64,000 nt of DNA from Clostridia bacterium (lineage in GTDB: Bacteria; Bacillota; Clostridia; Oscillospirales; CAG-272): positions 7,283-71,282 of the forward strand of contig JAGATW010000096.1 in NCBI GenBank assembly GCA_017621085.1, in the 5' to 3' direction. The translations under genes were made by a program, and so were the position numbers. Position 1 is the first letter of the stretch; every line of letters starts with the position of its first letter. This document shows, in pieces, positions 3,719 to 47,917 of this stretch. The notes under the pieces were generated by a model. It was not told the DNA's origin and ran no database searches. It was given only the letters and a program-made list of their open reading frames with translations.

Positions 3719-3762
3719 AATTTGCCACCCTGTGTCAATAAAATGAATAAAAGGAGCAATAA

Positions 3763-4860
3763 ATGAGTAATAGATGGAGTAAGGAAAAAGCTTGGGAATG
3801 GTATAACTCTCGCCCTTGGATAAGAGGCTGCAACTATATGAGCGCTGACTGTGTTAACAGAGTTGACCAATGGCAAGGCTTACATTTCGAGGAAAGAATA
3901 AAAACCACCGAAGAGGAATTAAAGGTAATGCAGGAATTAGGCTATAACTCTGTTAGGCTAATTCTTGAATACGTGGTATGGAAGGAAGAACACGATAGCT
4001 TTCTTGAACGATTTGAAAGATATATCGCCCTTTGCCACAAATACGGAATTTCCTGTATGATTGTTTTGGCAAACGACTGTATGCCACCGAAAACAGAGCT
4101 TTGGAAAATGCCATACATAGGTGAGCAGAGCTATGATTGGGGCTATCACGGTGGCAGAAAGCACTCTCAACACGGTGCGCATAATGGTCCTGCTCCTCAT
4201 TTTTATCTTGATGATGAAGAAAGTGCAAGGGACTACTTTAAAATGGTAGAGGAAATTGTAACTCTTTATAAGGACGATGAGCGCATTTTAATGTGGGACG
4301 TGTTTAATGAGCCCGGCAATAGCAGAAGAAGTGGAATTACATTGCCAATTCTTAAAAAAATGTTTGAGACTGTAAGAAAAGCAAACCCTTCACAGCCAAT
4401 AACAGCAGGTGCTTGGTGCTGTGATAAAAATTGCGAGTTTACAATGCCCGAGGACATATTCTGCATTGAAAACTCTGATATAATTACCTACCATAACTAT
4501 GGTAAATATGAGGAGCATGTAAGAGTTATTAAATACCTTAAAAAATTCGGACGTCCCCTTATAAATACCGAGTGGCTTGCAAGATGCACAGGCAACACAA
4601 TTTTTGAAAACTTTCCGCTTTTCTATCTTGAAAATATCGGTTGCTATAACTGGGGCTTTGTGGCAGGAAAATACCAGACCTATGAGCCATATGAGGCACA
4701 TTGGAATTGGTATAATGAGGACAAGCACGCAGAAATTGATTTTACAAAATGGTTTCATGACCTTTATCGCCCGAGCCTTCGCCCCTATGACCCCCACGAA
4801 ACAGACCTTATTAAAAAATTCTGCACCCTTGCAGACAAGGAGCTTAAACAGCACAAATAA
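3763..4860 (+). CDS. Clan GH-A TIM-barrel glycoside hydrolase (GH5-like, xylanase/mannanase-type annotation class)
   Basis: WDVFNEPGN (acid/base NEP) and LINTEW (nucleophile Glu) spacing is typical of clan GH-A. No signal peptide. AAAGGAG RBS. Confidence 0.6.
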   Translation: MSNRWSKEKAWEWYNSRPWIRGCNYMSADCVNRVDQWQGLHFEERIKTTEEELKVMQELGYNSVRLILEYVVWKEEHDSFLERFERYIALCHKYGISCMIVLANDCMPPKTELWKMPYIGEQSYDWGYHGGRKHSQHGAHNGPAPHFYLDDEESARDYFKMVEEIVTLYKDDERILMWDVFNEPGNSRRSGITLPILKKMFETVRKANPSQPITAGAWCCDKNCEFTMPEDIFCIENSDIITYHNYGKYEEHVRVIKYLKKFGRPLINTEWLARCTGNTIFENFPLFYLENIGCYNWGFVAGKYQTYEPYEAHWNWYNEDKHAEIDFTKWFHDLYRPSLRPYDPHETDLIKKFCTLADKELKQHK

Positions 4861-4889
4861 AATTTGCAATTTGAAAGGAGCTTAACAGG

Positions 4890-6914
4890 ATGAATATTAA
4901 AAATTTATCTGTATTAATGTTGGCTTTTTTAGTCCTTTGCCTGTGCCTTTTCGCTTGCTCCGATAGCAGGGACAATACAGCATCAAGTAGTAATGCCGAA
5001 GAAGGGCAGGACACAGAAGCAAGCAACGATACCATAAAAAGTAGCGACACAGGGTCAAGCAAAAATGATAACGAAGAAGGCAATGACCCTATACCCGACA
5101 AGGAAAACGAGGAATACTTTGTAGCTACTATAATTGAAAATGAAAATGTAGTGGCTAATCCCTATACGTCAAGCATAGAGGTTGATAGTGAACTACAGTC
5201 CATTTACTATTCAGCAAGCACTCCCGGTGGAGAGCCAAAAAATGATGGCACAGGAAATATATGGTTAACCTTAAAGCCACTTAAGGACAATTGCATAGAT
5301 AAGGTAGAGGTAAGAGGAAGCTATTCTTCCATTGAAAACGAAGGCGACGACATATACTGTATATACGGTGTATCATCAAACCTGACAGTTAGCATCAGCA
5401 CCAAGCAATTACCAATCGTACAAAAGGAAATATTTGATGGCTACGGCTACGGAATTTCCGATGATGGAATAATGACAGTTACTTGGAAGGAAAACCCACA
5501 AGACCCAATACGTTATGTGGAGTTAAGCTATTTTGACGGAAGAAGTCGCATTGAATATATAGACGCATCCAAAGGGTCAAAGGAGCTTTTTCTAATGGAG
5601 GAGCATAAGCAATACACAGTATCAATGCGTGCCATCGGCTATTACGGTAAGGGACAGATGGTTGATGTAAAAGGCTGTTATATGAAATCACCAAAGGATG
5701 TGCCGTTTCCAAGAGTTGAAATAACAACTGAAAACTATATATGGCCCGATTGCGATTTTGTACAATCCCCTGAAGGATGCTGGGGCGCAGGTATTACAAA
5801 TGCAGAATATGAGCAATGTGTAATTACTCTTTATAATGAGCAAAACGAGGTTGTATATAGCTCAAGCCTTGATAATGAAAGACCGAATTTTTCAGGTGCA
5901 AAAATGAAAATTCGTGGTAACACAAGCGCACGGTATGCAACTGATTCAAGATATCCATACAAAATCAAATTAAATAAAAAGGCAGATTTGCTATTCCCCC
6001 TTATTGACCGTGAAGAAAAGGAATGCTATAAGGATAAGGACTGGCTACTTCTTAACTATGGTAACGAGGGCTTCCGTATTTTTGGTGATGCAATTGCGGA
6101 TGCAGTAGGCACGGAATGGTCGCCTGATTATTGTTACGTCAGCTTATATGTAAACGGAGAATACAGAGGACTTTATGTATTGTCTGAATCTGTTAAGGAA
6201 GGCAATAAAGAGGGTAATGAACAAAGTCGAGTTAATGTAGAAAAGGATGGTTATGTGTTTGAGTGCGATGCTTATTGGTGGAATGAGACCCTTTCATTTT
6301 CTACTCCGCTAACACAAAACACACCAATGCACTTTACCTTTAAATATCCGGACTCTGACGATATAAATGCGGATTCGAAGGAGCTTATTTATCTAAAAAA
6401 TTACTTAACCGAATTTGAAGAAGCGCTAATGAGAGATGATGACTCATACCTTGACTACATAGACCTTGATTCCTTTGTAAAATGGTTACTTGTGTCTGAC
6501 TTTTTGTGCATAAGCGACGGTGGTGGCTGTAATATATTCCTGTGCAAGGAGGACTCAACAGATAATACCAAACTGGAAATGGGTCCAAACTGGGATTTTG
6601 ACTCATATATGGGAAATGTATATGGACTTTCCACCATTCGTTTAAAATGGGACACAGCACCATTTTACTATCAACACCTAATAGAAAAGGAGTCCTTCCA
6701 AAAAAGATATAGCGAGCTTTTCTGGAAATTAAAGGACACTCTTTATGAAAATATCGAAAAAGAATTTGATAAAATAAATGAGGAGAGCCACACAAGTCTT
6801 TTGCAATACGATAATTTCCGTTTTGGCTCATCCTTTAAAACATTATCGGAGCGCAAGGACAAATTTATTACTTGGCTTGGCGAGCATATTCGTTGGATGG
6901 AAAATCAATTTTAA
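4890..6914 (+). CDS. CotH-family (atypical kinase fold) lipoprotein
   Basis: Signal peptide with lipobox LFAC-S, then an acidic S/D/E/N linker. CotH-type motifs: KMKIRGNTSARY, YPYKIKLNKK, LLLNYGNEGF, YVNGEYRGLYVLSESV. Confidence 0.8.
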   Translation: MNIKNLSVLMLAFLVLCLCLFACSDSRDNTASSSNAEEGQDTEASNDTIKSSDTGSSKNDNEEGNDPIPDKENEEYFVATIIENENVVANPYTSSIEVDSELQSIYYSASTPGGEPKNDGTGNIWLTLKPLKDNCIDKVEVRGSYSSIENEGDDIYCIYGVSSNLTVSISTKQLPIVQKEIFDGYGYGISDDGIMTVTWKENPQDPIRYVELSYFDGRSRIEYIDASKGSKELFLMEEHKQYTVSMRAIGYYGKGQMVDVKGCYMKSPKDVPFPRVEITTENYIWPDCDFVQSPEGCWGAGITNAEYEQCVITLYNEQNEVVYSSSLDNERPNFSGAKMKIRGNTSARYATDSRYPYKIKLNKKADLLFPLIDREEKECYKDKDWLLLNYGNEGFRIFGDAIADAVGTEWSPDYCYVSLYVNGEYRGLYVLSESVKEGNKEGNEQSRVNVEKDGYVFECDAYWWNETLSFSTPLTQNTPMHFTFKYPDSDDINADSKELIYLKNYLTEFEEALMRDDDSYLDYIDLDSFVKWLLVSDFLCISDGGGCNIFLCKEDSTDNTKLEMGPNWDFDSYMGNVYGLSTIRLKWDTAPFYYQHLIEKESFQKRYSELFWKLKDTLYENIEKEFDKINEESHTSLLQYDNFRFGSSFKTLSERKDKFITWLGEHIRWMENQF

Positions 6915-6941
6915 CAAAAATATTCATTATAGGAGATAATT

Positions 6942-7985
6942 ATGCCATTACAAATAATAAGGCAAGATATAACAAAAATTGAATGTGATGCCATAGTCAA
7001 TCCTTCAAATTGTGACTTAGTGCCGAGTGGGGGAGTTGACTTAGCAATTCATAAAGGTGCAGGCAAGGAGCTACTTGAATACTGTAAGGCGATAGGTGGA
7101 TGCAACGCCGGAAAAGCAGTAATTACCCCTGCATTTAAGCTACCCTGTAAATATGTAATACATACCGTAGGTCCACAGTGGAATTGTGAAAATAGTGAAT
7201 ACTGTGTCGCTCTTTTAAAATCTTGCTACCAAGAAAGCTTAACACTTGCCATTAAAAATCAGTGCCAAAGTGTAGCTATGCCGCTTATATCAACAGGGCT
7301 TTATGGCTTCCCACAGGACAAAGCCTTGAAAATTGCAACAGGTGTTATACAGGATTTCCTTTTTGAAAACGAAATGACTGTGTACTTAGTTGTGTACGAT
7401 AAAAAATCATTTACCATAACGGAAAAGATTTTTTCCGACATTAAGCAGTTAATTGACGATGCTTATGTGGATGAGCATTCAGACTATGTAAGAAGCAATG
7501 CTCAATTTTGCAGAAGAGCATCAAGATACGAAAAGAAAATAGAATTATTTGACGTAACAGAAGAAGGCTTGGCAAATGACGATTTTATAGCCGAGTGCAA
7601 AACAATGCTTCCCTGCACATCCTTAGAGGAAATGCTATCGTCAATGGATGAAAGCTTTGCAGTAACTCTTTTAAAGCTTATAGACCTTAAGAAAATGACA
7701 GATGTTGAATGCTATAAAAAGGCAAATGTAAGTAAGCAAACCTGGTACAAAATAATGAATGACAAGGACTACAAGCCAAGTAAAAATACAGTAATTGCTT
7801 TTGCTATTTCTCTTGAATTAACTATTGAGGAAACGGAAAGACTTTTAAAAACTGTTGGCTTTACCCTATCAAAAAGCAATAAATTTGATATAATAATCGA
7901 ATATTTTATACTGAACGAAAATTATAACATATTTGAAATTAATGAAACACTATTCAAATTTGACCAAGTAGGCTTGGGAGTTTGA
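6942..7985 (+). CDS. Macro-domain (ADP-ribose binding/hydrolase, MacroD-type) protein with C-terminal XRE-like HTH
   Basis: DAIVNPSN, GGVDLAIHKGAG, VIHTVGPQW and PLISTGLYGFP motifs. The C-terminus ANVSKQTWYKIMNDKDYKPSKNTVIAFAISLELTIEETERLL looks like a helix-turn-helix. Confidence 0.85.
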   Translation: MPLQIIRQDITKIECDAIVNPSNCDLVPSGGVDLAIHKGAGKELLEYCKAIGGCNAGKAVITPAFKLPCKYVIHTVGPQWNCENSEYCVALLKSCYQESLTLAIKNQCQSVAMPLISTGLYGFPQDKALKIATGVIQDFLFENEMTVYLVVYDKKSFTITEKIFSDIKQLIDDAYVDEHSDYVRSNAQFCRRASRYEKKIELFDVTEEGLANDDFIAECKTMLPCTSLEEMLSSMDESFAVTLLKLIDLKKMTDVECYKKANVSKQTWYKIMNDKDYKPSKNTVIAFAISLELTIEETERLLKTVGFTLSKSNKFDIIIEYFILNENYNIFEINETLFKFDQVGLGV

Positions 7986-8088
7986 TGGTAAATTAGCGAT
8001 TTACCAAAAGATAAAAAGCAAAATGTATAATGTGATTGTAAGGTTGAAAAACCGAGCAATCACATTTTATTTTAAAGGAGAAAAGAAG

Positions 8089-8748
8089 ATGACAGAAAAA
8101 ATTAAGAACGGTGTAACGGAGCTTGTATTCATTTTAGACAAAAGTGGCTCAATGGCAGGAATGGAGAATGACACAATAGGTGGCTTTAACTCAATGATAG
8201 AAAAGCAAAAGGGTGAGGATGGACAGGTGCTTGTTTCCACAGTTATGTTTTCAAACACATCAGAGGTTATACACGATAGAGTAAGCTTAGATGAAATAAA
8301 GCCTCTTACAAAAAATGACTATGTAACAGGTGGAATGACAGCCCTGCTTGATGCCATAGGCGGAGCAATACACCACATAGGCAACATCCATAAGTACGCA
8401 AGAAATGAGGATGTGCCGGAGCATACAATATTCATAATAACAACTGACGGAATGGAAAATGCAAGTCGCAATTACAGTAGCGATAAAATCAAAGCAATGA
8501 TTAAACGCCAAGAGGAAAAATATGGCTGGGAATTCCTTTTTGCAGCAGCCAACATAGATGCTGTTGAAACAGCCGAAAGAATTGGCATTCGTAAGGAAAG
8601 AGCAGCTAATTATGATGTTCCCACAGGAACAGACGTACTGTTTTGCGAAATGGCAGAAACCGTAACAATGTACAGAAAATCGGGAGCAATTCGCGAAAAT
8701 TGGAAGGAAAATATCGAGGCAACCGACAAAAGAAACAAGAAAAAGTAA
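8089..8748 (+). CDS. von Willebrand factor type A (vWA) domain protein, cytoplasmic
   Basis: MIDAS-type DKSGSM ... TTDGMEN. Start placed at ATG 8089 (AAAGGAG 8 nt upstream) rather than the track start 8023, which lacks an RBS. Confidence 0.8.
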   Translation: MTEKIKNGVTELVFILDKSGSMAGMENDTIGGFNSMIEKQKGEDGQVLVSTVMFSNTSEVIHDRVSLDEIKPLTKNDYVTGGMTALLDAIGGAIHHIGNIHKYARNEDVPEHTIFIITTDGMENASRNYSSDKIKAMIKRQEEKYGWEFLFAAANIDAVETAERIGIRKERAANYDVPTGTDVLFCEMAETVTMYRKSGAIRENWKENIEATDKRNKKK

Positions 8749-8790: not shown

Positions 8791-8804
8791 TGGATAAAAT
8801 GAAA

Positions 8805-8836
8805 GAATGCAAAAAAGCAAGAATGCAAAAAAGCAA
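8805..8836. repeat. Perfect tandem duplication, 16 nt x 2 (GAATGCAAAAAAGCAA)
   Basis: Read directly: 8805-8820 equals 8821-8836. Confidence 0.9.
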
Positions 8837-8859: not shown

Positions 8860-8888
8860 TTGACAACTGCTACATAATATGTTATAAT
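8860..8888 (+). promoter_or_regulatory. Consensus sigma-A promoter of LRR paralogue 1
   Basis: TTGACA (8860-8865), 17 nt, TATAAT (8883-8888). Confidence 0.7.
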
Positions 8889-8896: not shown

Positions 8897-8926
8897 AAAA
8901 TTGCAATACTAAAAATTGCAATACTA
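8897..8926. repeat. Perfect tandem duplication, 15 nt x 2 (AAAATTGCAATACTA) in the 5' UTR of LRR paralogue 1
   Basis: 8897-8911 equals 8912-8926. It lies between the -10 box and the RBS. Confidence 0.9.
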
Positions 8927-8944: not shown

Positions 8945-10960
8945 ATGAAAAAGAAACTTTTATTAGTAGCTGTTATGATGGCTATTTTAGCTTGTCTTTT
9001 TGTACTCAGCGTAAGTGCAGCCGGCTCTACAACTGACGAGTTTGGTATAGCGGAAACGCTTGATGGTATTCCTGTTGACTTGACAGATACAACATCGAGA
9101 GTTGTTTTAAAGGGTAGTGACGGTTTATTCAGAACCTTCCCATCTTCCTACATCTATTTCAAAACAGGTGCAGGCAACTGGAACTGGCGAGGCGAGGCTA
9201 AATGTACCTTTGAGTATATCAATACAGCTCTTGGCTTAACAGAAGAAAATGCTTACACTATTGACAGTATTATAAGAATTGAGGTTCCTGACGATTTAAA
9301 GTACATCGAGGGCTTTAGTGGAAAAGTAAATCTTAAGGAGGTGTATTTTTCACCAACCTCTGAAATGACAGATATGAGACCAATGGGTAATAAATGTGGT
9401 ATTGAAAAGATTACAATGCCACCAAAGCAAACATCTTATCCCGAGTTTTTGTTCCACACTTGTCCAAATCTTACAACTGTAATTTTTTATGAAAATGAGA
9501 ATTTGACATCACTTCCCAGGGAAATGTTTAAGGCTTGCACATCCTTAGTGGAGTTTACATTCCCAAGTAGCGTAACATCTATGGGTGCAAACTTCTTCTC
9601 CGGCTGTACATCACTTAAAAGAGTAACTCTTTCTCCCGGTATTACAAGCATAGGAAATAGCTTTTCATACTTAAAGAATCTTGAGTATGTAAACACAGAA
9701 AATATTACATCCTTTTCAAACAAGGCTTTCCAAGACTGCGAAAAGCTTGACGGAATTGTAATAAACGAAGCAGTTGCAACTATTCCAAATGACTTTTGTA
9801 AGAATTGCAAATCCTTGACATCTATTGTTATTCCAAGCAACGTTACAGCTATTAAAGGCTACGCCTTTGATGGATGTTACAAGCTTACAAGCGTTACAAA
9901 CTACGCTGAAAATATAACAATCATAGATGGCAATGCCTTTTCCGGCTGCCCAATTACTGAATTTAACTTCCCTGATAATCTAACAAGCATAGGTCAGTAT
10001 GCCTTTAACGGAGCGCAGTTTACAGAAGTTGACCTTCCAAGTACTATAACATCACTTGGTCAGGGCTGCTTCCAAGGTTGTACAAAGCTAACATATGTTC
10101 GTATTCCTGAGCTTGTAGAGCAGGTTCCACACGACTTTTTGAAGGATACACAAGGCTCTCAAATCACTATTGTTGTACCAAAGGGCTGTACATCTATTTA
10201 CTCACAGTATTCACTTGGAAACTCCGGTATTACTAAAATAATCTTCACAGGCTCTATGGATGATGATTTTGTAGCAGATGTTCAAAAGAAGGCAAGTGGC
10301 TGGGTAAGTAAAATTGTTTGCGAAAACCACTGTGACCATTATTATGATGGAGTACACGAGGAGGACAACAACCCTTGCGTAATTAATTGCACTCGTTGTA
10401 ATTCTGTAAACCAACCGGAGAAAAATCCTGAGCATAGCATATCTACAACAATTACATATGTAAGCTTTGCAAAGGATGGCGAAAAAATTACCGGCTGCGT
10501 AAACGAGGGCTGTACACATAAAACAACAGAGACAGCACCGGCACTCTTTACATGCAACGGCTTCTCAGCTTCCCAAACAGGAACAAACGGAATTGTTCTT
10601 GGCTTTAAGGTAAATCAGGAGGCTATTGATGCTTATACAGAGGCAACAGGCAACACAATTAAGTATGGTGTATTTGCCGGCTCACAAGCAAGCCTTGGTA
10701 ATAATGACCTTTCTGACGAGAATTTGAGCGAAAAGGTTATTAAGGCTGAAATTGCAAAAACTGAATTTGCAGTATTTGAAATTAAGATATTAGGCTTTAC
10801 AACTGACGAGCAAATGAACACAATGTTTGTAATTGGTGCTTATGTTGCTGAAACAGATGATGAAGGAACAACCTACTCATACATGCAGTTAGGCACACCG
10901 TCAGAGGGCGAAAGATATTGCTACGATACATACAACAATATTGTATCAGCACTTAACTGA
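8945..10960 (+). CDS. Secreted BspA-type leucine-rich-repeat (LRR_5) surface protein, paralogue 1
   Basis: Sec signal peptide MKKKLLLVAVMMAILACLFVLSVSA-A. Repeats of the form F.GC.SL..V.LP..VTSIG..AF..C..L. C-terminal Cys/His motif (CVNEGCTH) plus a ~170-aa module shared with 11115..12638 and 45822..47864. Confidence 0.85.
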   Translation: MKKKLLLVAVMMAILACLFVLSVSAAGSTTDEFGIAETLDGIPVDLTDTTSRVVLKGSDGLFRTFPSSYIYFKTGAGNWNWRGEAKCTFEYINTALGLTEENAYTIDSIIRIEVPDDLKYIEGFSGKVNLKEVYFSPTSEMTDMRPMGNKCGIEKITMPPKQTSYPEFLFHTCPNLTTVIFYENENLTSLPREMFKACTSLVEFTFPSSVTSMGANFFSGCTSLKRVTLSPGITSIGNSFSYLKNLEYVNTENITSFSNKAFQDCEKLDGIVINEAVATIPNDFCKNCKSLTSIVIPSNVTAIKGYAFDGCYKLTSVTNYAENITIIDGNAFSGCPITEFNFPDNLTSIGQYAFNGAQFTEVDLPSTITSLGQGCFQGCTKLTYVRIPELVEQVPHDFLKDTQGSQITIVVPKGCTSIYSQYSLGNSGITKIIFTGSMDDDFVADVQKKASGWVSKIVCENHCDHYYDGVHEEDNNPCVINCTRCNSVNQPEKNPEHSISTTITYVSFAKDGEKITGCVNEGCTHKTTETAPALFTCNGFSASQTGTNGIVLGFKVNQEAIDAYTEATGNTIKYGVFAGSQASLGNNDLSDENLSEKVIKAEIAKTEFAVFEIKILGFTTDEQMNTMFVIGAYVAETDDEGTTYSYMQLGTPSEGERYCYDTYNNIVSALN

Positions 10961-11004
10961 TAAAATCATTAAGCTACCCACTAATTCGGTGGGTAGCTTT
11001 TTGT
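10463..11004 (+). repeat. Copy 1 of a 542-bp colinear duplication (3' coding end plus terminator)
   Basis: Aligns without indels to 12141-12682 (constant offset 1678). The last ~160 bp differ at only a handful of positions by eye. Confidence 0.9.
10971..11004 (+). terminator. Rho-independent terminator
   Basis: AAGCTACCCAC / GTGGGTAGCTT stem, 7-nt loop, TTTGT tail. Confidence 0.8.
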
Positions 11005-11050
11005 AAAAAACGATGTGCTATGCAAAAAAGTCGCTATATTAAAAAAGCAC

Positions 11051-11079
11051 TTGTATTTTTTGCCATGCCGTGCTATAAT
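11051..11079 (+). promoter_or_regulatory. Sigma-A promoter of LRR paralogue 2
   Basis: TTGTAT (11051-11056), 17 nt, TGC-TATAAT (extended -10, 11074-11079). Confidence 0.6.
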
Positions 11080-11114
11080 GGAAAAGTAAAAAAAATTTTA
11101 AAAGAGGTAACAAA

Positions 11115-12638
11115 ATGAAAAAGAAGCTTTTTCTATTCACATTCATTGTAATGGCACTTGTATGTGTCCTTGCAATCTCTGTTTCTGCTGAAATTGCTTA
11201 CATTAATGCAAACGGTGAGCAGGTAAGTGCAGAAGCAACAGACATAGCGTACGAGCTTGAATTTCGTAATCCATTTGAAACAGGTGGTAACTGTAGATTA
11301 GAGTATATTTATCTTCATGATACAAGCATAACTAAAATTGTAGTTCCTGAAATTGAATTTACAAATTCAAAGGGTGTCGTTTACAAAATGGCAGAATATA
11401 GCTTTGTCAGACTTTCAACAGGCTGGGGAGATACATTATCCGTGTACGCAATAGGCGATAAGGAAACAAAGGCTAATAGCTTACACGCTCAAATCAAGGA
11501 GCTTGAGCTTCACATTCCTGTTCTTGCTGACGGTGCGGGTAGCAAGGGAAACTTAGCAGGCTGGTCAGGACTTGAAAAGCTAAGCTTTTATAAAAGAGCC
11601 TATGAGCCACAAAACAAGGGTGGATTTTTAAACGGATGCACATCAATAAAGGAGCTTCACTTTTATGGTGAAAACAATGAGCTGTCAGGAAACTTCTTCC
11701 CATCTACTATGAATGAGGGTGGTAAGGTAGTATTCTACGAAAATGCATCGGGCATTATCAAAGGCAGCGCAATGCAAGGACTTAACGGAAAAGACGTAAC
11801 AGTATATATGAATACTATTATGCAGCCGCAGGACAAGACCGACCCACGTCTTACTTGGAACAAAAAAGGAAATGCTTTAAAGTTCGTTCTTTTAGTTAAT
11901 GATAAATCCGGCTATACAGAGGAGCAAATTGCATCATACGAAACAATATGGCAAGCAGGCAACAATAAGAGTGAAAACAATGCAAAGTATTCAATGCCTA
12001 TTAATACCTATTGCGAGTTTTATAACAATCACTTGAATTTGAAAGAATTATCATCCTGTACTTCAAAATGTCTTGTATGTAATGAATTCGTAATTCCTGA
12101 AAATGCTACTCATAACATAGAAACAGCAATCAATTACGAAAGCTTTGCAAAGGATGGTCAAATAATTGTCGGCTGTGTAAACGAGGGCTGCACACATAAA
12201 ACAACAGAGACAGCACCGGCACTCTTTACATGCACAGGCTTCTCAGCTTCTCAAACAGGAACAAACGGAATTGTTCTTGGCTTTAAGGTAAATCAAGAAG
12301 CTATCAATGCCTACACAAGTGCAACAGGAAACACAATTAAGTATGGTGTATTTGTAGGCACACAAGCAAGCCTGGGCAACAGTGACCTTTCCGATGAAAG
12401 CTTAAGTGACAAGGTTATTATAGCCGAAATTAAGCAAACTGATTTTAAGGTATTTGACATAAAGATTATGGGCTTTGAAACAGAAGACCAAAAATCGACA
12501 TCTCTTGCAATCGGTGGCTATGTTGCTGAAACAGATGATGAAGGAACAACCTACTCATACATGCAGTTAGGCACACCGTCAGAGGGCGAAAAATATTGTT
12601 ACGATACATACAACAATATCGTATCAGCACTTAACTGA
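11115..12638 (+). CDS. Secreted protein with degenerate LRR-like core, paralogue 2 of the conserved-ends family
   Basis: Signal peptide MKKKLFLFTFIVMALVCVLAISVSA-E. The C-terminal ~180 aa are nearly identical to paralogue 1 (both end ...EGTTYSYMQLGTPSEGE.YCYDTYNNIVSALN). Confidence 0.8.
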   Translation: MKKKLFLFTFIVMALVCVLAISVSAEIAYINANGEQVSAEATDIAYELEFRNPFETGGNCRLEYIYLHDTSITKIVVPEIEFTNSKGVVYKMAEYSFVRLSTGWGDTLSVYAIGDKETKANSLHAQIKELELHIPVLADGAGSKGNLAGWSGLEKLSFYKRAYEPQNKGGFLNGCTSIKELHFYGENNELSGNFFPSTMNEGGKVVFYENASGIIKGSAMQGLNGKDVTVYMNTIMQPQDKTDPRLTWNKKGNALKFVLLVNDKSGYTEEQIASYETIWQAGNNKSENNAKYSMPINTYCEFYNNHLNLKELSSCTSKCLVCNEFVIPENATHNIETAINYESFAKDGQIIVGCVNEGCTHKTTETAPALFTCTGFSASQTGTNGIVLGFKVNQEAINAYTSATGNTIKYGVFVGTQASLGNSDLSDESLSDKVIIAEIKQTDFKVFDIKIMGFETEDQKSTSLAIGGYVAETDDEGTTYSYMQLGTPSEGEKYCYDTYNNIVSALN

Positions 12639-12682
12639 TAAAATCATTAAGCTACCCACTAATTTAGTGGGTAGCTTTTTTA
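12141..12682 (+). repeat. Copy 2 of the 542-bp colinear duplication
   Basis: See 10463-11004. Confidence 0.9.
12649..12682 (+). terminator. Rho-independent terminator (duplicate of 10971-11004)
   Basis: Same AAGCTACCCAC / GTGGGTAGCTT stem, then TTTTTAT tail. Confidence 0.8.
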
Positions 12683-12692: not shown

Positions 12693-12721
12693 TTGACAAA
12701 GCAAATCAATAATTGTATAAT
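12693..12721 (+). promoter_or_regulatory. Consensus sigma-A promoter of the giant gene
   Basis: TTGACA (12693-12698), 17 nt, TATAAT (12716-12721). Confidence 0.7.
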
Positions 12722-12785
12722 TACTTTATAGAGTTATAATTAAATTATAGTGATTTACTATGTTGTTTAAATGCAAGGAGGCAAT

Positions 12786-15700
12786 ATGGAAAAAATAAAG
12801 AATAATTGGAAGAAAATAGTCATAATAGCCTTAGCTGTGCTACTAATAATCACAGCAACAGTTATAGGCGTTTTGCTTTACGAAAGGGAGCTTAATAACT
12901 ATCGTGATGAAAAGATAGAAGAGCTTATTGAAAAGCAGGGCACTTATGATGAAAAAAGCATTGTCCTTAATAATACAAGCTTTGGCGAGGCGCAAAGACT
13001 TGCAAAAAAGCTTGGTGCAAAGCTAAGAATTACGGAAAATGGTAAATTTGCCACCCTAACTCTTGAGGATGAGCGCAGTATTATTGACATATTCAAGGAT
13101 GAAAACAACATAAAAGAGCTAAAAAGCCTAACCCCTGACTACGAGGCAAGAATAAACGAGGAAGAAAACGATGAAGAAGGCTTAAAAAAAGAGCCATCTG
13201 CCCCCGTTTATCAAGTAAAGGATGCTCTTTATAGCAATCAATCATACCTGAACTATATGAATTTACAGACCATATGGTCTAAAACTAAGGGTAAGGGAAT
13301 GAGCGTTGCTGTAATTGATACAGGTGTTGACACAGACCATCCGGACTTGGTAGGCAAAATAAGCGAATATTCATATAATGCCACCCTTGACAAAATAGTT
13401 AAGGACTATCAAGGGGAAAACGGTGGCTATGATTGGTCATTAATTGAGGACCAAGTAGGACACGGAACGCAGGTAGCGGGTGTTATTGGCGCAAATATGG
13501 ACGCAAACGGTATAACAGGAATCGCCCCCGAGGTGGAAATTGTTGTTATAAAGGCAGAGTGTGCCCAAAACGGAACATTTGTTCGTACATCTGACCTTGT
13601 TTTCGGTATTTATTATGCTATCGAGTGTGATGTTGATGTAATCAATATGTCCTTTGGTACAAAATACAACCTGTTTAGCGACGCTACATACCTTGCATAT
13701 GATAGCGATATTATTTGCGTAGCCTCAGCAGGTAACAACGGTAGCTCTGCTGAAAACTACCCTGCTGCCGACCAATATGTAATAGGTGTTGGCGCATTAG
13801 AGGCAGATGGCTGGGAGCTTGCAGAGTATTCTAACTATGGTATTAATACGGATGTAGTTGCCCCAGGTACAGTTTACACCACAAAAATGGGTGGTGGCTA
13901 TGGCACAATTGAGGGAACATCCTTTTCATCTCCTCTTGTAGCAGGAGCAATATCATTATATTTATCACAAAACAAATACCAAAGCTATGATGAGGTTTAT
14001 GAGCTTTTGTCCGTTTCAAGTATGGACTTAGGCGATTTAGGTAAGGACTGGTATTTCGGATATGGTGCATTGGATGTAAGCGCCCTTATTCTTGAGGAGC
14101 GCGGAACAATTACCTTTGAAATGCTAACCGACGAGCTTGACGATATAGAGGCTACCTTTATTCGCAATCATACAATGCAAGAGCTTCCTATACCGGAAAG
14201 ACTATATTCCTTGTTTGATGGCTGGTATTATGATGATAAATGTACAGAGGAGTATGCTTATTATGAGGATGTATTTACATCTGACCTTACCTTGTATGCA
14301 AAATGGATTAATGAAAGTGACGGAATACCATACACATATGAAATATTGGACGATGGAACAGTTGAGATAACATCCTATACAGGACATAGAAGATATATTA
14401 CCATTCCTGAAAAAATTGAGGGAAGAGTAGTTAGCTCCATAGGTGCAGGTGCATTTTTAAGACAGTCAAATATAAGAGAAATTAATCTTCCATCACAGCT
14501 TAAAACAATTAAAAACAGCGCATTTGAGGGATGTAGCTCATTATTAAATATACAAATTCCCGACACAGTTACATCTATTGGCGAAAGGGCGTTTTATGAT
14601 TGCTTTAAAATTTTAAGCATCGAATTAAGCACAAGCAGTCAGCTATCAACCATAGGTCAATATGCCTTTGCATCCTGTGGCAGAATTGAGTCCTTTGATT
14701 TGCCATCCACAGTTACATATGTAGATGCAACAGCCTTTCTTGGCAACCTAATGCAAACACAAATCAACGTAATGAACGGAAATGAAAGCTTTGTTTCCAA
14801 GGATGGCGTATTATTTAACAGATACGCAACCACGCTTATTGCATATCCTATGGGCAAGAGTGGTGACTACATAATACCTAACTCCGTTACACGCATAGGT
14901 GAGTATGCCTTTGCTTTTAGCCTGCTTGAATTTGTTGACTTAGCAAGGGTAGAAACCATAGGTAGCTATGCATTTAAGGGCTCAGTAATAGAAAGCCTTG
15001 TAATTAAGGACACAGTAACAAGCCTTGGCACAGGCGCATTTTCTATGTGTCCAGCATTATCAGAGGTTTATATCGGCAAGGGCATTAATTCTATTAGCTC
15101 AGGCGCATTTTCAGGCTGCTCATACTTAAGACAAATAACCATTCCTAACAATATTACAAGCATAGGCTATGCTGCATTTGGACAAAGCGGACTTACAGAA
15201 ATCAGCTTTGATAGTGGCTCTGACTTAAGAATGATAGGTATGGAAGCCTTTGCTATGACAAACCTTGTAAAAATAGAAATTCCTTCATCTGTAAATTTGA
15301 TAGACACAAAAGCATTTTATAAGTGCTATTCACTTGAAGAGGTTGCTTTTGACAGTAATTCCACACTTAATTCTATTAATGCCTACGCATTTTCCAAAAC
15401 GGGCTTAAAGGCTATTAATTTTCCATTAAGCCTTGAATATATTGATAGCTTTGCCTTTTCTGAATCAGCCCTTGAGGGTGAAATTTATATTCACGAAAAC
15501 ATAGAAGGAATGGGCGCAGGTGTATTTTCATATTGTAATTTACTCAACGCCATAAGAGTTAGCGAAAATAATAATAGCTATTGCGATATGAACGGTGTCC
15601 TTTACACAAAGGATTTAAGTCAGCTTTTTGCATATCCTTGTGGAAGCAAAACAACATCATATGTAATTAATGAAAGCACAAATAATATAATTCCATATGC

Positions 15701-18700
15701 ATTTGCAGGAGCAGAAAAGCTATATAGTGTAAAAATACCACAACAGCTAAGAGTTATAGGTGAGCTTGCCTTTTATGCTTGTGGCGCAAGGTCATATATT
15801 TTAAATAATGTGCTTGAGGAAATTTCCGCATCCTCCTTTGCAAAAAATGAGAATTTACAATTAATTACAATTCCTAAGAGTGTTAAAACTATTTCAAGAG
15901 GCGCATTTTCTTATAATACAAATATGAGAAGCATAGCTTTTGAAAATGAAGGCAGTCTTGTAAGAATAGGTAATGAAGCATTTTTAAAGTCAGGAATTAC
16001 AGAAATAAAAATTCCATCAACTGTTTCTACCATAGGACAGGGCGCATTTAACGGTTGCGAAAATCTTTATAAGGTAACATTTGAGGAAAATAGTCAGCTA
16101 AATTCAATTTCTGCATATATGTTTGAGGGTGCTTCCTCACTTTGCGAAATTATATTTGAAAAGGGCTCACAATTAAAGAGCTTACAGGCACACGCCCTTG
16201 ACGGAATGTCAAAAATTCAAAGGGTTGATTTGTCAAATACACAATTAACAAATGTTGATAATTTTGCCTTCCGTTTTTGCGAAAGCTTAACCGATTTATC
16301 ATTACCATCAACAGTTAGCTACATAGGTAGATATGCCTTTTACGGTTGCTCATCACTAAGTAGCCTATCCTTGCCAAGCTGTCTTGAATACTTAGGCGCA
16401 TATGCGTTTTTAGGCACAGATGGTATGGTGCTATACTTTATGAGTGAGAATTTCCCACCATACTTACAGGAGGAATGGGACAGAGGAGTTATATCTTATC
16501 ACTTAGGCGTTATTTCCGTTGAAGAAAAGGACGGCTGGAAATATGCTACATTAGTAGATGGTGGTATTTCCATAATTTCCTATACAGGTGAAAACAAGGA
16601 AATAGATATGGAAAAGCTTAACCTTGGTGGCGATATTGTTTCCATAGGTGGACAAGCATTTGAATTTAGTAATGTGGAAACGGTTAAATTACCAAGCACA
16701 CTGACAAGCATACAAAAATATGCCTTTGCAAGCAGTAAGCTTAAGGAGATTACAATTCCTAAGAGTGTTACCTTTATAGGTCAAAACGCATTTTTGGAAA
16801 CGCCTATAAAATCATTAACCTTTGAAACAGGAAGCGAATTAAGAGTAATAGAGCAATATGCCTTTGCATATACAGAAAGCCTTAATAGTGTAAGCTTACC
16901 GTCATCAATTGTAACCTTAGGCACAGGCGTATTTTTAAATAGTGGTATAAAATCCCTTACCTTTGATAAGGAAATAGGAATTGAAAAAATACCGCCACTT
17001 GCCTTTGCAAATACTAAAATAGAAGCTCTTACCTTGCCAAATAGTGTTTCGGTAGTAGATGATAATGCATTCAGAGAAACTAAAGCATTAAAGACCGTTG
17101 ATTTTGGTAATAACGAGTATATTCAATTAATGTCCAACGCCTTTTATCTAAGTGGCATAAGTGAGCTTACAATTCCTAAAAATGTTGGCTACATAGGCGA
17201 ATTTTGCTTTGTTGGTCTTACAAACTTAAAGGAATTTAAGGTAGATAGTGACCATGAATATTATAAAGCTATTGATGGCTTGCTTTACGAAAAGGACGGA
17301 AGAAAGCTTATTTGTGTCCCCTCAGCAAGACAAGGCACACTTACCTTGCCAAAAGAGGTTGAGGAAATAGGCTTTGGCGCATTTGAATATTCAAGCTTAG
17401 AGGGAGTAGAGTTTAATAAGGACTCCAATATACTAACTCTTGGCTATCGTGCCTTCTTCGGTATGGAGAATTTAAAGGAAATCACCGTTCCGAAAACTGT
17501 CGTTTCAATTGACTATTATGCCTTTGCATATTGTACCTCTCTTGAAAAAGTTTTCTTTGAGGAGGGTAGCCGATTAAGTGGCATATATGAGGGCGCATTC
17601 TGTGGTGATGAGCGTCTTTACGATATAACCTTACCAAATGAGGTTTTGGAAATATCCGATTATGTATTCTTTGGTTGCTCATCAATTAAAAAGCTCCCCA
17701 TTAGCAGTGACTCAAAAATAAAGGGCATTTATTCCTATGCCTTTGCATACACGGGCTTAACTGAGCTTAATTTACCAACAACAGTAAATGAAATAGGAAG
17801 CTATGCCTTCCGTGGCTCATCTGTTGAAAGAGTATATATTCCAGATGACAATTATGAGGTATTAACTATTGGCTACGGAGCCTTTGATTCCTGTAATAAT
17901 ATGGTAGAGCTTACAACTCCAATTATAGGAAGCTCTCTATATTACCCGGAATCAACAAGCCTTTCATACATATTTGGCACAGGAAATAATAGCCTAAAGG
18001 TTATGAACATAAGCGATGTTGTAACAGTAATACCTGATTTAGGTATTACCGGCTTTGGTGCTCTTGAAACACTTAATATTCCTGCAAGTGTAACTACATT
18101 AGGATATGGCGCTATAGCTACACCGGCTAAATATGAGCTTTTGTCCCCTGTATATGTTAATTCATATATATTTGATGGTGGAAATGTTGTCGGTAATGTA
18201 GTATTAACAGGTAACAAGCTACAAAGGGTAAGCTTTAACGGTCCTTATGTAGTATCTGTTACCTTGCCTGACACCATTGATGATAGCATTTCCTTTAGGA
18301 ATTGCACAAGCCTTGAAAGTGTTAATATCCCACTTGGCATAACAGCAATTGACAAAAACTGCTTTGAAAATTGCACCGCTCTTAAGAAAATAGAGCTACA
18401 TAGCGGTATTACAAGCTTAGGTGAAAAAGCCTTTTATAAATGCACAGGCTTAGAGGAGGTAACAGGACTTAGCGGTATTACCCAAATGGGTAATGAAGCC
18501 TTTAGCGGTTGTAGCAGCTTAAAGCGTGTTGAAAGCTTAGGCAGAATAAAGGTAGTGCCTGCCTATGCCTTTGCTTATTGCGAGTCCTTAGAAACAGCTC
18601 CTTTGCCAAGCACACTTACACAAATAGGAAGCTACGCCTTTATGCAGTGCTGCTCATTAAATGAGATTAATATACCAAATGGCGTAACTTCAATCGGTAT

Positions 18701-28413: not shown

Positions 28414-28442
28414 TTGACATAATTAACTGTATATGTTATAAT
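28414..28442 (+). promoter_or_regulatory. Consensus sigma-A promoter of the glycopolymer locus
   Basis: TTGACA (28414-28419), 17 nt, TATAAT (28437-28442). Confidence 0.7.
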
Positions 28443-29482: not shown

Positions 29483-30195
29483 ATATTGCAGTTGTAATAG
29501 CAGGCGGTAGTGGAAAGAGAATGGGACACGATATCCCTAAGCAATTTATAAATGTATTTGATAAGCCAATACTTATGTACACTCTTGAAAGCTTTGAAAA
29601 GCATCCGATGATTGATGCTATTGAGCTTGTATGTATTGATGGCTGGCACGACGTTGTACGTGCATACGCAAAGCAATATGGCATAACAAAGCTAAAATGG
29701 ATTGTGTCAGGTGGCGAAACAGGACAGGAGTCTATTCGTAATGGCGTATATAATCTTGAAAGCATTTGCAAGGAGGACGACGTTGTAATTATACACGACG
29801 GTATTCGTCCACTTGTTGACGAGGCTGTTTTAACAGACGTAATTCTAACCTGTGAAAAATACGGAAACGGAGTTACATCCTTGCCATATAACGAGCAAAT
29901 TTTCGTAGTAGATGATGAAATTTCCACAACAAAATACATCCCGCGTGAAACTCTTCGCAGAGTATCAACTCCACAGGCATATAAATTTGGCAAGCTAAAC
30001 TGGGCATACCACGAGGCTTTTGCAAAGGAAATAGGAATTTATGGCTCATCATATACAAACACTATGATGGTAGAGCTTGGCGAAAGACTATACTTTGCCG
30101 CAGGCTCAGATAAAAATATTAAGCTAACAAACAAGGACGACCTTGAAATGTTCAAGGCGTACCTTCTTTCCGAAAAGCAAAATAGACTTAATTAG
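29479..30195 (+). CDS. tarI: IspD/TarI-family cytidylyltransferase (probable D-ribitol-5-phosphate cytidylyltransferase)
   Basis: N-terminal VIAGGSGKRMG...PKQF motif. About 238 aa. ATGA start/stop overlap with the LicD gene. The ribitol assignment is inferred from context. Confidence 0.75.
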   Translation: MNIAVVIAGGSGKRMGHDIPKQFINVFDKPILMYTLESFEKHPMIDAIELVCIDGWHDVVRAYAKQYGITKLKWIVSGGETGQESIRNGVYNLESICKEDDVVIIHDGIRPLVDEAVLTDVILTCEKYGNGVTSLPYNEQIFVVDDEISTTKYIPRETLRRVSTPQAYKFGKLNWAYHEAFAKEIGIYGSSYTNTMMVELGERLYFAAGSDKNIKLTNKDDLEMFKAYLLSEKQNRLN

Positions 30196-30204
30196 GAGTA
30201 AAAG

Positions 30205-31257: not shown

Positions 31258-31278
31258 CGTGTAAAAAGGAGCATATCA

Positions 31279-45759: not shown

Positions 45760-45788
45760 TTGACAACTTGAGCCTTTTGTGGTATACT
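45760..45788 (+). promoter_or_regulatory. Sigma-A promoter of LRR paralogue 3
   Basis: TTGACA (45760-45765), 17 nt, TATACT (45783-45788). It shares TTGACAACT with the promoter at 8860. Confidence 0.65.
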
Positions 45789-45821: not shown

Positions 45822-47864
45822 ATGAAAAAGAAACTTTTAATGGTGGCTGTAATCGTTGCACTTTTAGTGTGTGCTCTTGCAGTTTCTGCAAGTGCTTCTG
45901 CAAACGGCAGCGCTTCAAATGAGTATGGCACACCTACAATCTATGACAGCATAGTTGAAAAGGATAAGCTTGATACAACATCAAGAGTTGTGCTTGTAAA
46001 TGCAGACGGCACATATTCAACCTATCCTGCGTATTATATTTTGAAAAACGATCTTAACTCAAGCCTTGATTTCACAGCGCTTAACACTGCAACAGGTGAA
46101 AGCTATTCTAATAAAAGCGTTGTAAGAATTGAGTTCCCAAACGCAATCAAGCAAATCAACGGCAGTATGTTCGATGAAAACAAGGCTCTTATTGAAGTTG
46201 ACTTGCCAAGCTCACTCGAGTCAGTACAGAGCAGAGCGTTTTACAACTGTATTAATTTGCAGTACATTGACGGAACCGAAGGCTTGCTTATTTTCCCAGA
46301 GGGCTTTACAAGAATCGCAGCTAACAATGCGTTCTACAACTGTGATAAAATCAAGTACGTTGAATTCCCCTCAACCTTTACATATTTAGGTCAGGCAGCC
46401 TTTCACGATTGTGACGGTCTTTTGCTTGCCAGCTTTGATAAGGTAAATGAGGCAATTAATAACGGAACAAGAACAGCAAGAGTTGACTTCAACAACTGCG
46501 GCTCATTCAAATATTGTGACAATCTTGTAGCCTTGAGCCTTCCAGAATTAACAACCACTGCAATTAACCGTCTTGCGTGTGGCTGTACTAATTTAACAGC
46601 GGTTTATTTGCCTGATTCAATTGTGGAAATAGGCACAAATGCAAACGGACAAGGCGCATTTGATGATTGCACAAAAATGTACTTTGTACAAGAGTCCTTT
46701 ACAGTTAGCCAATGCATAGTAGATGGACAGGTTGATTTAAGTAAGCTTGACTTGCCTGAAAAGCCGGCAGTTTATTATATGCCAACAAGCTTTACTAAAT
46801 TTATCGGTCACGTTGACTCAAATCAGTGGAGCAAGGGTGGAACTATTTTCAGAAATTGCACATCCTTAAACGATACTATTGTTTTCGGTGAAGCGTTTAC
46901 ATTCTTTAACGGATATAATGTAATGCAAGGAGTAGGAACAAAGGACTCACCTAAGAATGTTGTTTTCTTGGCTGATATGACAGAGGCAATTACATTGCAA
47001 AATACATCGTATATTAATTTCTATTTTGCAAACCCGGCAGATAAATCTCCTGCTGACATTGGCTTAAAGATTGCATATAAGGCAAGCAACACAACAGAAA
47101 CATATTGGTATTTCTGTAACGGCGGAGCAAGATATACATATGCAATACAGGAAAAGCTGCTTAGTGATGATATTGCTGTAAATCTTGAAACTATTCTTAC
47201 AACAAAGGATGAGGTTAACTTTGTTCACGCAGCTGAAAAGCAGGGCGAAAGCGATGCAACATGTACACTCCCTGCAGGACTTCACACATACTGCTTCTGT
47301 GGCAAGGTAGCTTACTCAGAGTATGTAGAGGGCTCAGTTGCATTGGGTCACGATACACTTGTTGCAAACGGTGCTATCGATCTTGGCATAGCTTATATAA
47401 ACTTCTTTGAAAACGGTGCACATAGCTATGAGTGTGCAAGATGTGGAGAAGCGTGTGTAGAGGAAACAGAGGCTCTCTTTGTATGGAAGGGCTATACAGT
47501 ATCTGTATTTGGCGATACCTTTGCAATGGCACAGGGCTTTGCAGTTAACAGTGTGGCGGTTGAGGCTTATAAGGAGTATGATGCAGGCTTTGAGTTTGGC
47601 TTGATTGCAGCAGGTAACAAAAACGAAAACGGAGAAGCATTTGCACCAGAATTAAGCGGAGATTTGTGCATACCTCAGAGCAAAATAGCTCACGATTATT
47701 TTGACATCAAGATAGCAGGCATTACAGACACTTTGGTTGAAAAGCAAATTGTATTCTGCGCATATGTAAAGGCACAGGATAAGGTATACTATCTTGACAA
47801 TGAAACAACAAGCGAAGCAGTAACAGGTATTAGCTACAACACAATAGTAGGCTTGCTAGGCTGA
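45822..47864 (+). CDS. Secreted BspA-type LRR surface protein, paralogue 3 of the conserved-ends family
   Basis: Start at ATG 45822 (AAGGAG 45809-45814), which gives the signal peptide MKKKLLMVAVIVALLVCALAVSASA. LRR_5-type repeats. Cys/His units (ATCTLPAGLHTYCFCG, YECARCGEAC). A diverged copy of the C-terminal module (EALFVWKGYTVS...YFDIKIAGI...). Confidence 0.8.
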   Translation: MKKKLLMVAVIVALLVCALAVSASASANGSASNEYGTPTIYDSIVEKDKLDTTSRVVLVNADGTYSTYPAYYILKNDLNSSLDFTALNTATGESYSNKSVVRIEFPNAIKQINGSMFDENKALIEVDLPSSLESVQSRAFYNCINLQYIDGTEGLLIFPEGFTRIAANNAFYNCDKIKYVEFPSTFTYLGQAAFHDCDGLLLASFDKVNEAINNGTRTARVDFNNCGSFKYCDNLVALSLPELTTTAINRLACGCTNLTAVYLPDSIVEIGTNANGQGAFDDCTKMYFVQESFTVSQCIVDGQVDLSKLDLPEKPAVYYMPTSFTKFIGHVDSNQWSKGGTIFRNCTSLNDTIVFGEAFTFFNGYNVMQGVGTKDSPKNVVFLADMTEAITLQNTSYINFYFANPADKSPADIGLKIAYKASNTTETYWYFCNGGARYTYAIQEKLLSDDIAVNLETILTTKDEVNFVHAAEKQGESDATCTLPAGLHTYCFCGKVAYSEYVEGSVALGHDTLVANGAIDLGIAYINFFENGAHSYECARCGEACVEETEALFVWKGYTVSVFGDTFAMAQGFAVNSVAVEAYKEYDAGFEFGLIAAGNKNENGEAFAPELSGDLCIPQSKIAHDYFDIKIAGITDTLVEKQIVFCAYVKAQDKVYYLDNETTSEAVTGISYNTIVGLLG

Positions 47865-47888
47865 TTTTGATTATAAGTTGATAATAAA

Positions 47889-47917
47889 ACGGACTGTTGT
47901 TAACAGTCCGTTTTTTG
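47889..47917. terminator. Bidirectional terminator
   Basis: ACGGACTGTT / AACAGTCCGT stem with a 3-nt loop, TTTTTTG tail and an A-run upstream. Lies between convergent genes. Confidence 0.8.

Follow-up and report, generated by a model that had tools for sequence, protein, structure and literature searches.

A large family of predicted exported proteins in gut Clostridia with conserved ends, exchanged cores and a possible surface handle

Three genes with common ends

Three genes in a 64-kb stretch of DNA from a Clostridia bacterium (contig JAGATW010000096.1; the whole stretch is called the window below) encode proteins that are alike at both ends and different in between. Genes A and B stand in tandem, and gene C lies far from them (Table 1). 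Each protein consists of a predicted signal peptide, a core, a Cys/His-rich linker and a C-terminal domain of about 175 aa, referred to here as the module. Judged from their sequences, these proteins belong to a large family that has yet to be named, whose exported members come from Clostridia in the guts of ruminants and other animals. The family and its architecture, the recombination of its cores and the proposed role of the module as a surface handle form a single account, which is considered correct as a whole with a probability of about 0.6.

Positions refer to the forward strand of the window. The three open reading frames (ORFs) described in the first-pass annotation were recovered; the lengths given there hold for A and B, whereas C comprises 680 aa instead of 681, as it does in the NCBI call. 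A longer ORF for C could start at 45750. The 680-aa start is preferred because the promoter of C and an AGGAG ribosome-binding site (RBS) precede its MKKK start, and because the NCBI annotation agrees. In the metagenome-assembled genome (MAG) at NCBI, the three proteins (MBO4983638/39/56) are annotated only as 'leucine-rich repeat protein', the label of A (MBO4983638.1), or 'hypothetical protein', the label of B (MBO4983639.1). C is flanked by uvrB on one side and by an Hsp33-containing block on the other, in keeping with its earlier description as a distant copy among housekeeping genes.

The N-termini of A, B (MKKKLFLFTFIVMALVCVLAISVSA) and C (MKKKLLMVAVIVALLVCALAVSASA) begin with MKKK, continue with a hydrophobic stretch that contains one Cys and end in SVSA or SASA. 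When the six frames of the window were scanned with this signal-peptide pattern, A, B and C were the only matches; the signal peptide whose likeness in the three genes had been noticed at first reading is thus specific to the family within the window. Exported proteins encoded elsewhere in this stretch carry either a lipobox-type signal peptide (starts 4890 and 24958) or, like a giant protein encoded from 12771, a membrane anchor at the N-terminus. At the level of pattern, the three N-termini correspond to signal peptides for Sec export and cleavage by signal peptidase I (SPase I), with a basic N-region, a hydrophobic stretch and an AXA-like end. The lipobox pattern [LVI][ASTVI][GAS]C fails in B (ALVC) and C (LLVC), which have V at -1, and is ambiguous in A (ILAC). 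Across the family, lipobox-like G, A or S at -1 is found in only 14 of 111 members, and the sequence after the Cys stays hydrophobic; the Cys lies inside the hydrophobic region in 76 of the 111. Most full-length members (73/80) begin with M and basic residues, and the family consensus, MKKKxLLxxxxxxxLxCxFAISVSA, is 50-95% conserved per column.

The cores follow no single plan. A and C contain arrays of the leucine-rich repeat (LRR) family LRR_5 (PF13306), scoring 209.1 bits (2.1e-62) and 105.6 bits (2.3e-30) against a gathering cut-off of 27.7 bits, and their N-termini share about 120 residues at 35-38% identity. In contrast, neither LRR_5 nor any other Pfam family matched B, including its core, even at E<=1. 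The earlier view that the cores range from clear LRR_5 arrays to degenerate LRR-like sequence was right for A and C and finds no support in B, which is scored no better than uvrB or aspS by a hidden Markov model (HMM) built from the LRR units of the giant protein. The NCBIfam models HupY and Gli349 match the LRR part weakly. A phage origin was considered and rejected, PHROG matches being limited to the LRR part and a BFVD fold search being negative.

The first-pass annotation had ascribed a near-consensus promoter to each gene. This is correct for A and C, whereas B has an extended -10 element with a weak -35. Such promoters are common in the window, where 16 sites score at least 11/12 as sigma-70-type promoters; most of them read TTGACA-17-TATAAT, and many have the TG of an extended -10. 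Near-perfect examples also precede ordinary operons (e.g., 26126, 28414, 34456 and 53617), hisS and an arabinofuranosidase gene. A special family trait was therefore rejected; the promoters of A, B and C mark independent transcription units and are nothing unusual. No Rfam family exceeded its gathering score anywhere in the window, and no riboswitch was found. Two tandem repeats were observed upstream of A: a perfect 15-nt duplication in the 5' untranslated region (5'UTR; 8897-8926, +), AAAATTGCAATACTA x2, between the -10 and the RBS, and an imperfect 16-nt repeat at 8796-8827. These repeats could be operator sites.

Table 1. Features of genes A, B and C and of the segments that recombine, in window coordinates
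Feature	Position	Strand	Description
A promoter	8860..8888	+	TTGACA-17-TATAAT with TG; perfect match
Gene A	8945..10960	+	671 aa; signal peptide, N-terminal cap, BspA-type LRR_5 array, Cys/His linker, C-terminal module
A signal peptide	8945..9019	+	Family type, MKKKLLLVAVMMAILACLFVLSVSA
A conserved C-terminal region	10325..10957	+	Cys/His-rich linker (from HCDHYYDG) and acidic beta-rich module; module proper about 10409-10957
A 3' block	10422..11002	+	85% nt identity to B 12100-12680 over 581 bp; stop codon and terminator hairpin included
Window-only segment	about 10529..12206	+	~1.68 kb, missing in L015/L016; distal A module to proximal B linker
A terminator hairpin	10971..10999	+	AAGCTACCCAC...GTGGGTAGCTT; near-copy of that of B
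B extended -10	11071..11079	+	TGcTATAAT; -35 weak (TTGTAT); read directly in the sequence, not listed by the promoter scan
Gene B	11115..12638	+	507 aa; family signal peptide, ~300-aa core, Cys/His linker, C-terminal module
B 3' block	12100..12680	+	Module, stop, terminator; fused to A core in L015
C promoter	45760..45788	+	TTGACA-17-TATACT with TG; 11/12
Gene C	45822..47864	+	680 aa; family signal peptide, cap shared with A, LRR_5 array, divergent linker and module subtype
C module	about 47325-47861	+	
C terminator hairpin	47886..47914	+	

The C-terminal module and the family that bears it

The Cys/His motif and the following domain of about 170 aa, which had been read as common to the three proteins, are indeed shared. 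At the C-terminus, A and B share 72% of their residues over 210 aa (E=1e-100), and their modules are identical at 80% of amino acids and 85% of nucleotides; for A and C, the figure is 28% over 142 aa (E=7e-8). Against the A2 profile, A scores 241.9 bits, B 235.1 and C 113.0 (E 4.5e-34), all three being among the 33 sequences of the profile. Independent of the profile, the module of C matches other members by BLASTP at about 1e-13. Another 150 proteins match the A1 profile. The linker has the rough consensus Y-x-Y-x-x-C-[DE]-A-[FY]-Y-x-G-x-H ... C-x3-C-x2-C ... H ... C-x-N-x-G-C. The 6-7 Cys and 2 His of this region may bind zinc or form disulfides. A block of Cys/His repeats, H-x-Y...C-T-x-x-G...C-x-x-C, is also present at about aa 3040-3260 of the giant protein; the proposal that the two are the same element was rejected, as a linker HMM found no match in that protein.

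No known domain accounts for the module. It has no Pfam match, whether in full A, B and C at E<=1 or in 33 isolated modules at E<=5, no match in NCBIfam and none among PDB sequences, either by single sequence or by profile. An AlphaFold2 model based on the 33-sequence alignment reached a predicted local distance difference test (pLDDT) score of 92.3 and a predicted template modelling (pTM) score of 0.84. Beta structure predominates in the model, which also has three short helices and, at its N-terminus, a small beta unit that contains Cys. Searched with this model, Foldseek returned nothing at E<1e-3 and no TM-score >0.37 in PDB or BFVD, its sole matches being weak and of a generic Ig/FN3-like type. 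An earlier model made from 6 sequences was poor (pLDDT 62), and its Foldseek result was set aside. The possibility that a well-known domain occupies the C-terminus was thereby checked in Pfam, NCBIfam, PDB sequences and Foldseek, at the level of which the linker and the ~175-aa domain are new. The module is strongly acidic, with a median isoelectric point (pI) of 4.5 and a net charge of about -12.

The extent of the family was revealed by an exhaustive profile search over 1.84 billion representatives, each standing for a cluster at 50% identity; a word-indexed search with the module gave 3 relatives only. Using the module as a query, as the first-pass annotation had advised, retrieved 1170 representatives at E<=1e-3, 638 at <=1e-10 and 188 at <=1e-30, which bears out a real multigene family with conserved ends. 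In 151 of the best 152 matches, the module reaches the C-terminus or stops a few residues short of it. The exception, P0097 (1252 aa; L008/L009 10001-13759), contains the module internally (aa 486-659), followed by Phosphodiest/Metalloenzyme and Laminin_G_3 domains, and its gene lies among glycoside hydrolase genes. Family members in general are often found in such surroundings. An LRR_5 core is present in 64 of 80 full-length members, and GDPD, Phosphodiest, Metallophos or Sulfatase domains occur in single members of the 80. Thus, the core is usually a BspA-type LRR_5 array, sometimes another domain as in B and rarely a phosphoesterase.

Family proteins come from ruminant and other animal gut metagenomes, under the source names 'Clostridia bacterium', 'Eubacteriales bacterium' and 'Ruminococcaceae bacterium'. 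A narrower alignment located 5 loci among species-representative genomes and 1 in JGI metagenomes. At least four copies are present in one fragmented MAG, and tandem members occur in four loci (L004, L011, L012 and L013). The contig that carries P0065, an orthologue of B, opens with a (GACA)n microsatellite (L012 1-55) running into the end of the upstream ORF; it may mark the edge of an assembly, or it may be a genuine simple-sequence repeat beside a family gene. A full-text search of the literature found no description of the family.

Conservation is concentrated at the two ends of the proteins. The information per column is 2.57 bits in the signal peptide and 2.46 in the module, compared with 1.35 in the next 50 columns and about 1.46 in the middle, so the ends are not generic low-complexity sequence. 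These values bear on a trivial explanation, in which the shared ends combine a generic signal-peptide composition with an already known domain. It is true that the basic, hydrophobic and AXA layout is common to all signal peptides. However, only three matches to the pattern occur in 64 kb, the similarity is highly significant and no known domain was found. The trivial explanation is refuted by these results, and its probability is close to nil.

Recombination and genomic setting

The 3' parts of A and B form a block of high nucleotide identity that extends beyond the stop codons (Table 1). Identity within this block is patchy (63-100%), with 95% near aa 523-552, 63-72% near aa 593-632 and 100% over the last ~40 codons. 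The 5' boundary of the block is sharp: synonymous divergence (dS) is 0.41 inside it, whereas upstream of about nt 10400 it is saturated and not computable; the cores of A and B are unrelated. Across genomes, the core of A is 73% identical to that of P0140, with modules at 41%, and the core of B is 63% identical to that of P0065, again with modules at 41%. Six orthologues of the A core at 72-80% identity have modules at 31-55%. C and its orthologue P0066 are collinear, with 78% identity in the core and 70% in the module.

Strain comparisons locate some of the junctions. In strain L015/L016, the flanks are 95.7-98.3% identical to the window, and the order is CotH, Macro, a 219-aa gene, a new family member of 571-578 aa, the A orthologue and the giant gene, without B. 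The new member uses the promoter, the 5'UTR and the first 33 coding nucleotides of A, with a junction that corresponds to 8977/8978 of the window. Up to L015 ~7570-7600, the A orthologue matches window A at ~100% identity; past this point, identity is 93-100% to window B and only 63-83% to window A. The dS of the distal module is 0.42 against window A and 0.064 against window B, with a local background of 0.04-0.06. Together, the switch in identity and the shift in dS indicate a homologous crossover inside the module. The segment of ~1.68 kb that is present only in the window holds the distal A module, the A terminator and the promoter, signal peptide, core and proximal linker of B. Its ends (10529/12206) are approximate, because the crossover falls in a stretch where A and B are identical. 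The structural change between the window and L015 is a deletion or an insertion, and either direction is possible.

Another, independent comparison involves L011 (P0140) and L013 (P0136), which represent the same locus in other genomes. The upstream region and signal peptide are 98% identical and are followed by 766 bp in one and 418 bp in the other without similarity. Beyond them lies an LRR stretch at 53-63% identity, after which identity jumps abruptly to ~100% and stays there across the linker and module and into the beginning of the next family gene.

These comparisons show that recombination exchanges the cores, its breakpoints lying in the conserved ends, and that cores, modules and signal peptides have separate histories. 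The layout proposed by the first-pass annotation, conserved ends around a swappable core, is upheld in that cores are exchanged at the conserved ends, but it holds only within a locus: across genomes, the A-type cores are better conserved than the modules attached to them. Within one genome, module identity is 20-59% (30% between A and C), the adjacent pair A and B excepted. Homogenisation of modules is therefore local and not genome-wide, and the idea that modules are homogenised throughout a genome by coevolution with a genome-specific partner was rejected.

Few substitutions underlie the comparison of selection between the window and L015. The ratio of nonsynonymous to synonymous divergence (dN/dS) is 0.71 in the LRR region of A (dS 0.023, dN 0.016), compared with 0.09-0.21 in the CotH, Macro, 241-aa and giant genes. 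This difference suggests relaxed or diversifying selection on the binding surface of A.

If the family served antigenic or phase variation, with one member expressed at a time and copies switched by recombination or promoter inversion against immunity or phage, one would likewise expect ends that are conserved, cores that vary, copies in tandem and recombination among them, all of which are found here. The raised dN/dS in the LRR region agrees with such a scheme. So does an imperfect inverted repeat of 23 nt (19/23), whose arms (10913-10935 and 11158-11180, 222 nt apart) bracket the stop codon and terminator of A and the promoter and start codon of B. However, the arms lie in coding sequence, namely the last codons of A and the signal peptide of B, and an inversion would damage both genes. 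Although rarer than chance expectation, the repeat is probably not an invertible switch. Each copy is also equipped with a promoter, an RBS, a signal peptide and a terminator of its own; silent cassettes were not found. No recombinase or invertase was detected among the Pfam-scanned ORFs, which cover most of the window, and the 5' coding regions contain no homopolymer or simple-sequence tracts. Moreover, recombination was observed between strains, not within one assembly. Since no device for switching came to light in these searches, classical phase or antigenic variation is considered quite unlikely, and the diversity found is diversity between strains. The first-pass reading of the family as variable surface antigens is thus not sustained in its switching sense.

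The neighbouring genes add to the picture of the locus. Directly 3' of B lies the gene for the giant protein (4064 aa; 12771-24965, +), which has its own perfect promoter (12693-12721). Besides an N-terminal membrane anchor, this protein contains Peptidase_S8 (subtilase), 21 LRR_5 stretches, Flg_new repeats and a Dockerin_1 domain (about nt 24576-24755; 23.2 bits, just over the Pfam cut-off of 22.9), the presence of which points to a cohesin partner encoded by the same genome. The giant protein does not contain the family module, and the family array stands directly upstream of its gene in both strains. Cys/His motifs resembling its repeats are found in a 225-aa ORF (57783-58460, +) that has a lipoprotein-like N-terminus (MCFCLLAVITSCGHEHTW...) and no Pfam or PHROG match.

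The block 5' of A (1322-8748, +) begins with genes for a WYL-domain protein, a rhamnosidase-like protein and GH5, followed by a CotH-kinase lipoprotein, a Macro-domain protein and a 241-aa protein. The last of these has a DxSGS (vWA-like) motif and matches phrog_7371 at 5e-54. On a longer contig (L006/L007), the block is preceded by a 1128-aa SNF2/ResIII helicase with DUF8437. The block may be a defence or mobile island adjoining the array. A teichoic-acid-type cluster (28556-34341, +; perfect promoter at 28414-28442) encodes LicD, an IspD/TarI-like cytidylyltransferase, an NAD-dependent epimerase/dehydratase and a 1020-aa Glyphos_transf protein (TagF/TarL-like). With SipL and CotH, which the window also encodes, this cluster suggests that the host is a spore-forming monoderm Firmicute.

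Proposed function and related display systems

The architecture of the family suggests how its members may act. The proteins would be exported by the Sec pathway and, as their N-terminal pattern predicts, cleaved by SPase I after SVSA. The LRR array or other core would bind a ligand, and the linker and module would form a common handle that holds the proteins on the surface by docking to a shared partner. Conserved 5' sequences (the signal peptide) and 3' sequences (the linker, module and terminator) serve homologous recombination, which rejoins cores with other modules and inserts or deletes whole cassettes. Close relatives among the strains consequently differ in the sets of cores found at one locus. 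In this manner, the binding repertoire would be diversified between strains, rather than expression being switched within a cell.

We infer attachment by the module from the combination of no known anchor, a strictly C-terminal position and the presence of anchoring domains at that position in LRR_5 homologues. SLH, CWB2, dockerin, LysM, Por_Secre_tail and Gram_pos_anchor domains are all missing from the 80 full-length members. LPXTG is absent from A, B and C; a loose motif occurs in 1 of 155 sequences, and a hydrophobic tail in none of them. Non-covalent wall-binding families (SLH, CWB2, LysM, choline-binding and GW/SH3) gave no Pfam match in A, B and C, the 80 members or the 33 modules. In contrast, distant LRR_5 homologues of similar size end in Dockerin_1 (P0204, P0228 and P0283), three SLH domains (P0265) or Por_Secre_tail (P0259).

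Several observations weigh against this account. The strong acidity of the module makes direct binding to anionic wall polymers less likely, many wall-binding modules being basic. The internal module of P0097 makes a strictly C-terminal sorting signal unlikely, and the attachment of the module to a few phosphoesterases likewise speaks against a simple wall anchor or sorting signal. Modules that diverge within a genome are hard to reconcile with one common partner, unless it tolerates such differences or more than one exists. As for cassette insertion and deletion, the event that separates the window from L015 can be read in both directions.

Acidity, the internal copy and the phosphoesterases keep alive an alternative in which the proteins are freely secreted. 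The module would then be a shared carbohydrate- or metal-binding domain, directed for example at plant fibre or mucin, to which the cores add specificity or catalysis. In favour of this alternative, the module is beta-rich and shows a weak, non-significant likeness to Ig/FN3-like domains and Big_2-CBM56, a few members carry enzymes (GDPD, Phosphodiest, Metallophos or Sulfatase), the arrangement of P0097 resembles that of a carbohydrate-binding module, and members often lie among glycoside hydrolase genes. However, no significant match to a carbohydrate-binding module was found in sequence or fold, and the exact C-terminal position in all but one of the best matches is more typical of anchoring, docking and sorting modules, such as those borne by LRR_5 homologues at the same place. 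Free secretion is therefore regarded as rather unlikely, though more likely than the other alternatives.

The surface-handle account also has to be set against a dedicated export, sorting or processing pathway that reads both the signal peptide and the C-terminal domain and may remove or covalently process the module. T9SS (type IX secretion system) C-terminal domains and YSIRK/LPXTG sorting are what we take to be its functional analogues. A signal peptide so unusually conserved across proteins that are otherwise <30% identical, and specific to the family within the window, would be explained by such a pathway. The Cys in the hydrophobic region of most members, the strict position of the module and the Por_Secre_tail at the same position in a Bacteroidota-type homologue are in line with it. 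Against it stand the internal module of P0097, contexts that differ among loci with no candidate machinery beside the genes, and a module of 175-215 aa that is far larger than the 75-position Pfam model of Por_Secre_tail. Recombination and shared ancestry could also explain the conservation of the signal peptide by themselves. A pathway of this kind is considered unlikely.

The surface handle proposed here can be compared with known systems. BspA-type LRR surface proteins (Tannerella forsythia BspA, Treponema denticola LrrA and streptococcal HupY/LrrG) likewise have LRR_5 arrays behind a signal peptide and are retained through T9SS C-terminal domains, LPXTG or other known anchors. The present family differs in having its own Cys/His linker and a new C-terminal domain, and B has no LRR; its tie to the BspA-type LRR_5 class lies solely in the cores of A and C. 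Listeria internalins comprise many paralogues, often in tandem, with a signal peptide, LRRs, a beta-sandwich domain and a C-terminal retention module. Their LRRs are not of the LRR_5 type, however, and the LPXTG or GW module is lacking here. An internalin-type domain (InlK_D3) occurs in only 1 of 80 members, and the family signal peptide is far more conserved.

Cellulosomal proteins with dockerins, small calcium-binding helical modules, also place a variable core between a signal peptide and a conserved acidic C-terminal module, and Dockerin_1 is found both in distant LRR_5 homologues of the A core and in the giant neighbour. In contrast, the family module is a beta domain of 175 aa, compared with 57 positions in the Pfam model of Dockerin_1, and has no Dockerin_1 or cohesin match in Pfam and no significant Foldseek match in PDB. 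The Cwp (CWB2) proteins of Clostridioides difficile and SLH proteins are paralogues in monoderm Clostridia that combine one wall-retention module with differing functional domains. One LRR_5 homologue ends in SLH domains, but the family has no CWB2 or SLH match and its module is strongly acidic. Cargo of the T9SS carries a beta-sandwich at the extreme C-terminus of many otherwise unrelated exported proteins, and one LRR_5 homologue has Por_Secre_tail. The family lacks this domain (no PF18962 or TIGR04183 match in Pfam or NCBIfam), its module is about twice as long as the Pfam model, and, to our knowledge, a T9SS is not expected in spore-forming Firmicutes. Mycoplasma Vlp/Vsa lipoproteins and trichomonad BspA-like families share the conserved 5' leader and 3' end, variable middle, tandem arrays and recombination. 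They differ in that no switching device or silent copy was found here and that variation is between strains. By analogy, the family resembles paralogous display families such as internalins, Cwp and SLH proteins, dockerin proteins and T9SS cargo, yet it has none of the sequence features that define them.

A tentative extension of the surface-handle account is that the signal peptide, the linker and the acidic beta-domain constitute a new docking display system of uncultured gut Clostridia, with its own receptor and with ends that double as recombination handles. This possibility, if true, would provide a functional parallel to cohesin-dockerin or T9SS C-terminal-domain display. Uncultured Clostridia are prominent in the guts of ruminants and other animals, and little is known of how they display adhesins. 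More than 1000 clusters at 50% identity bear only the labels 'leucine-rich repeat protein' or 'hypothetical protein'. The profile of the module can be used directly to annotate these proteins and as a handle for finding the partner. A confidently modelled module with no relative in sequence or fold is a concrete candidate for a new surface-retention or docking module. The strain comparisons provide cases, at the level of base pairs, in which conserved ends drive the gain, loss and rejoining of cassettes, and recombination of this kind would offer a mechanism for the fast diversification of binding repertoires between strains.

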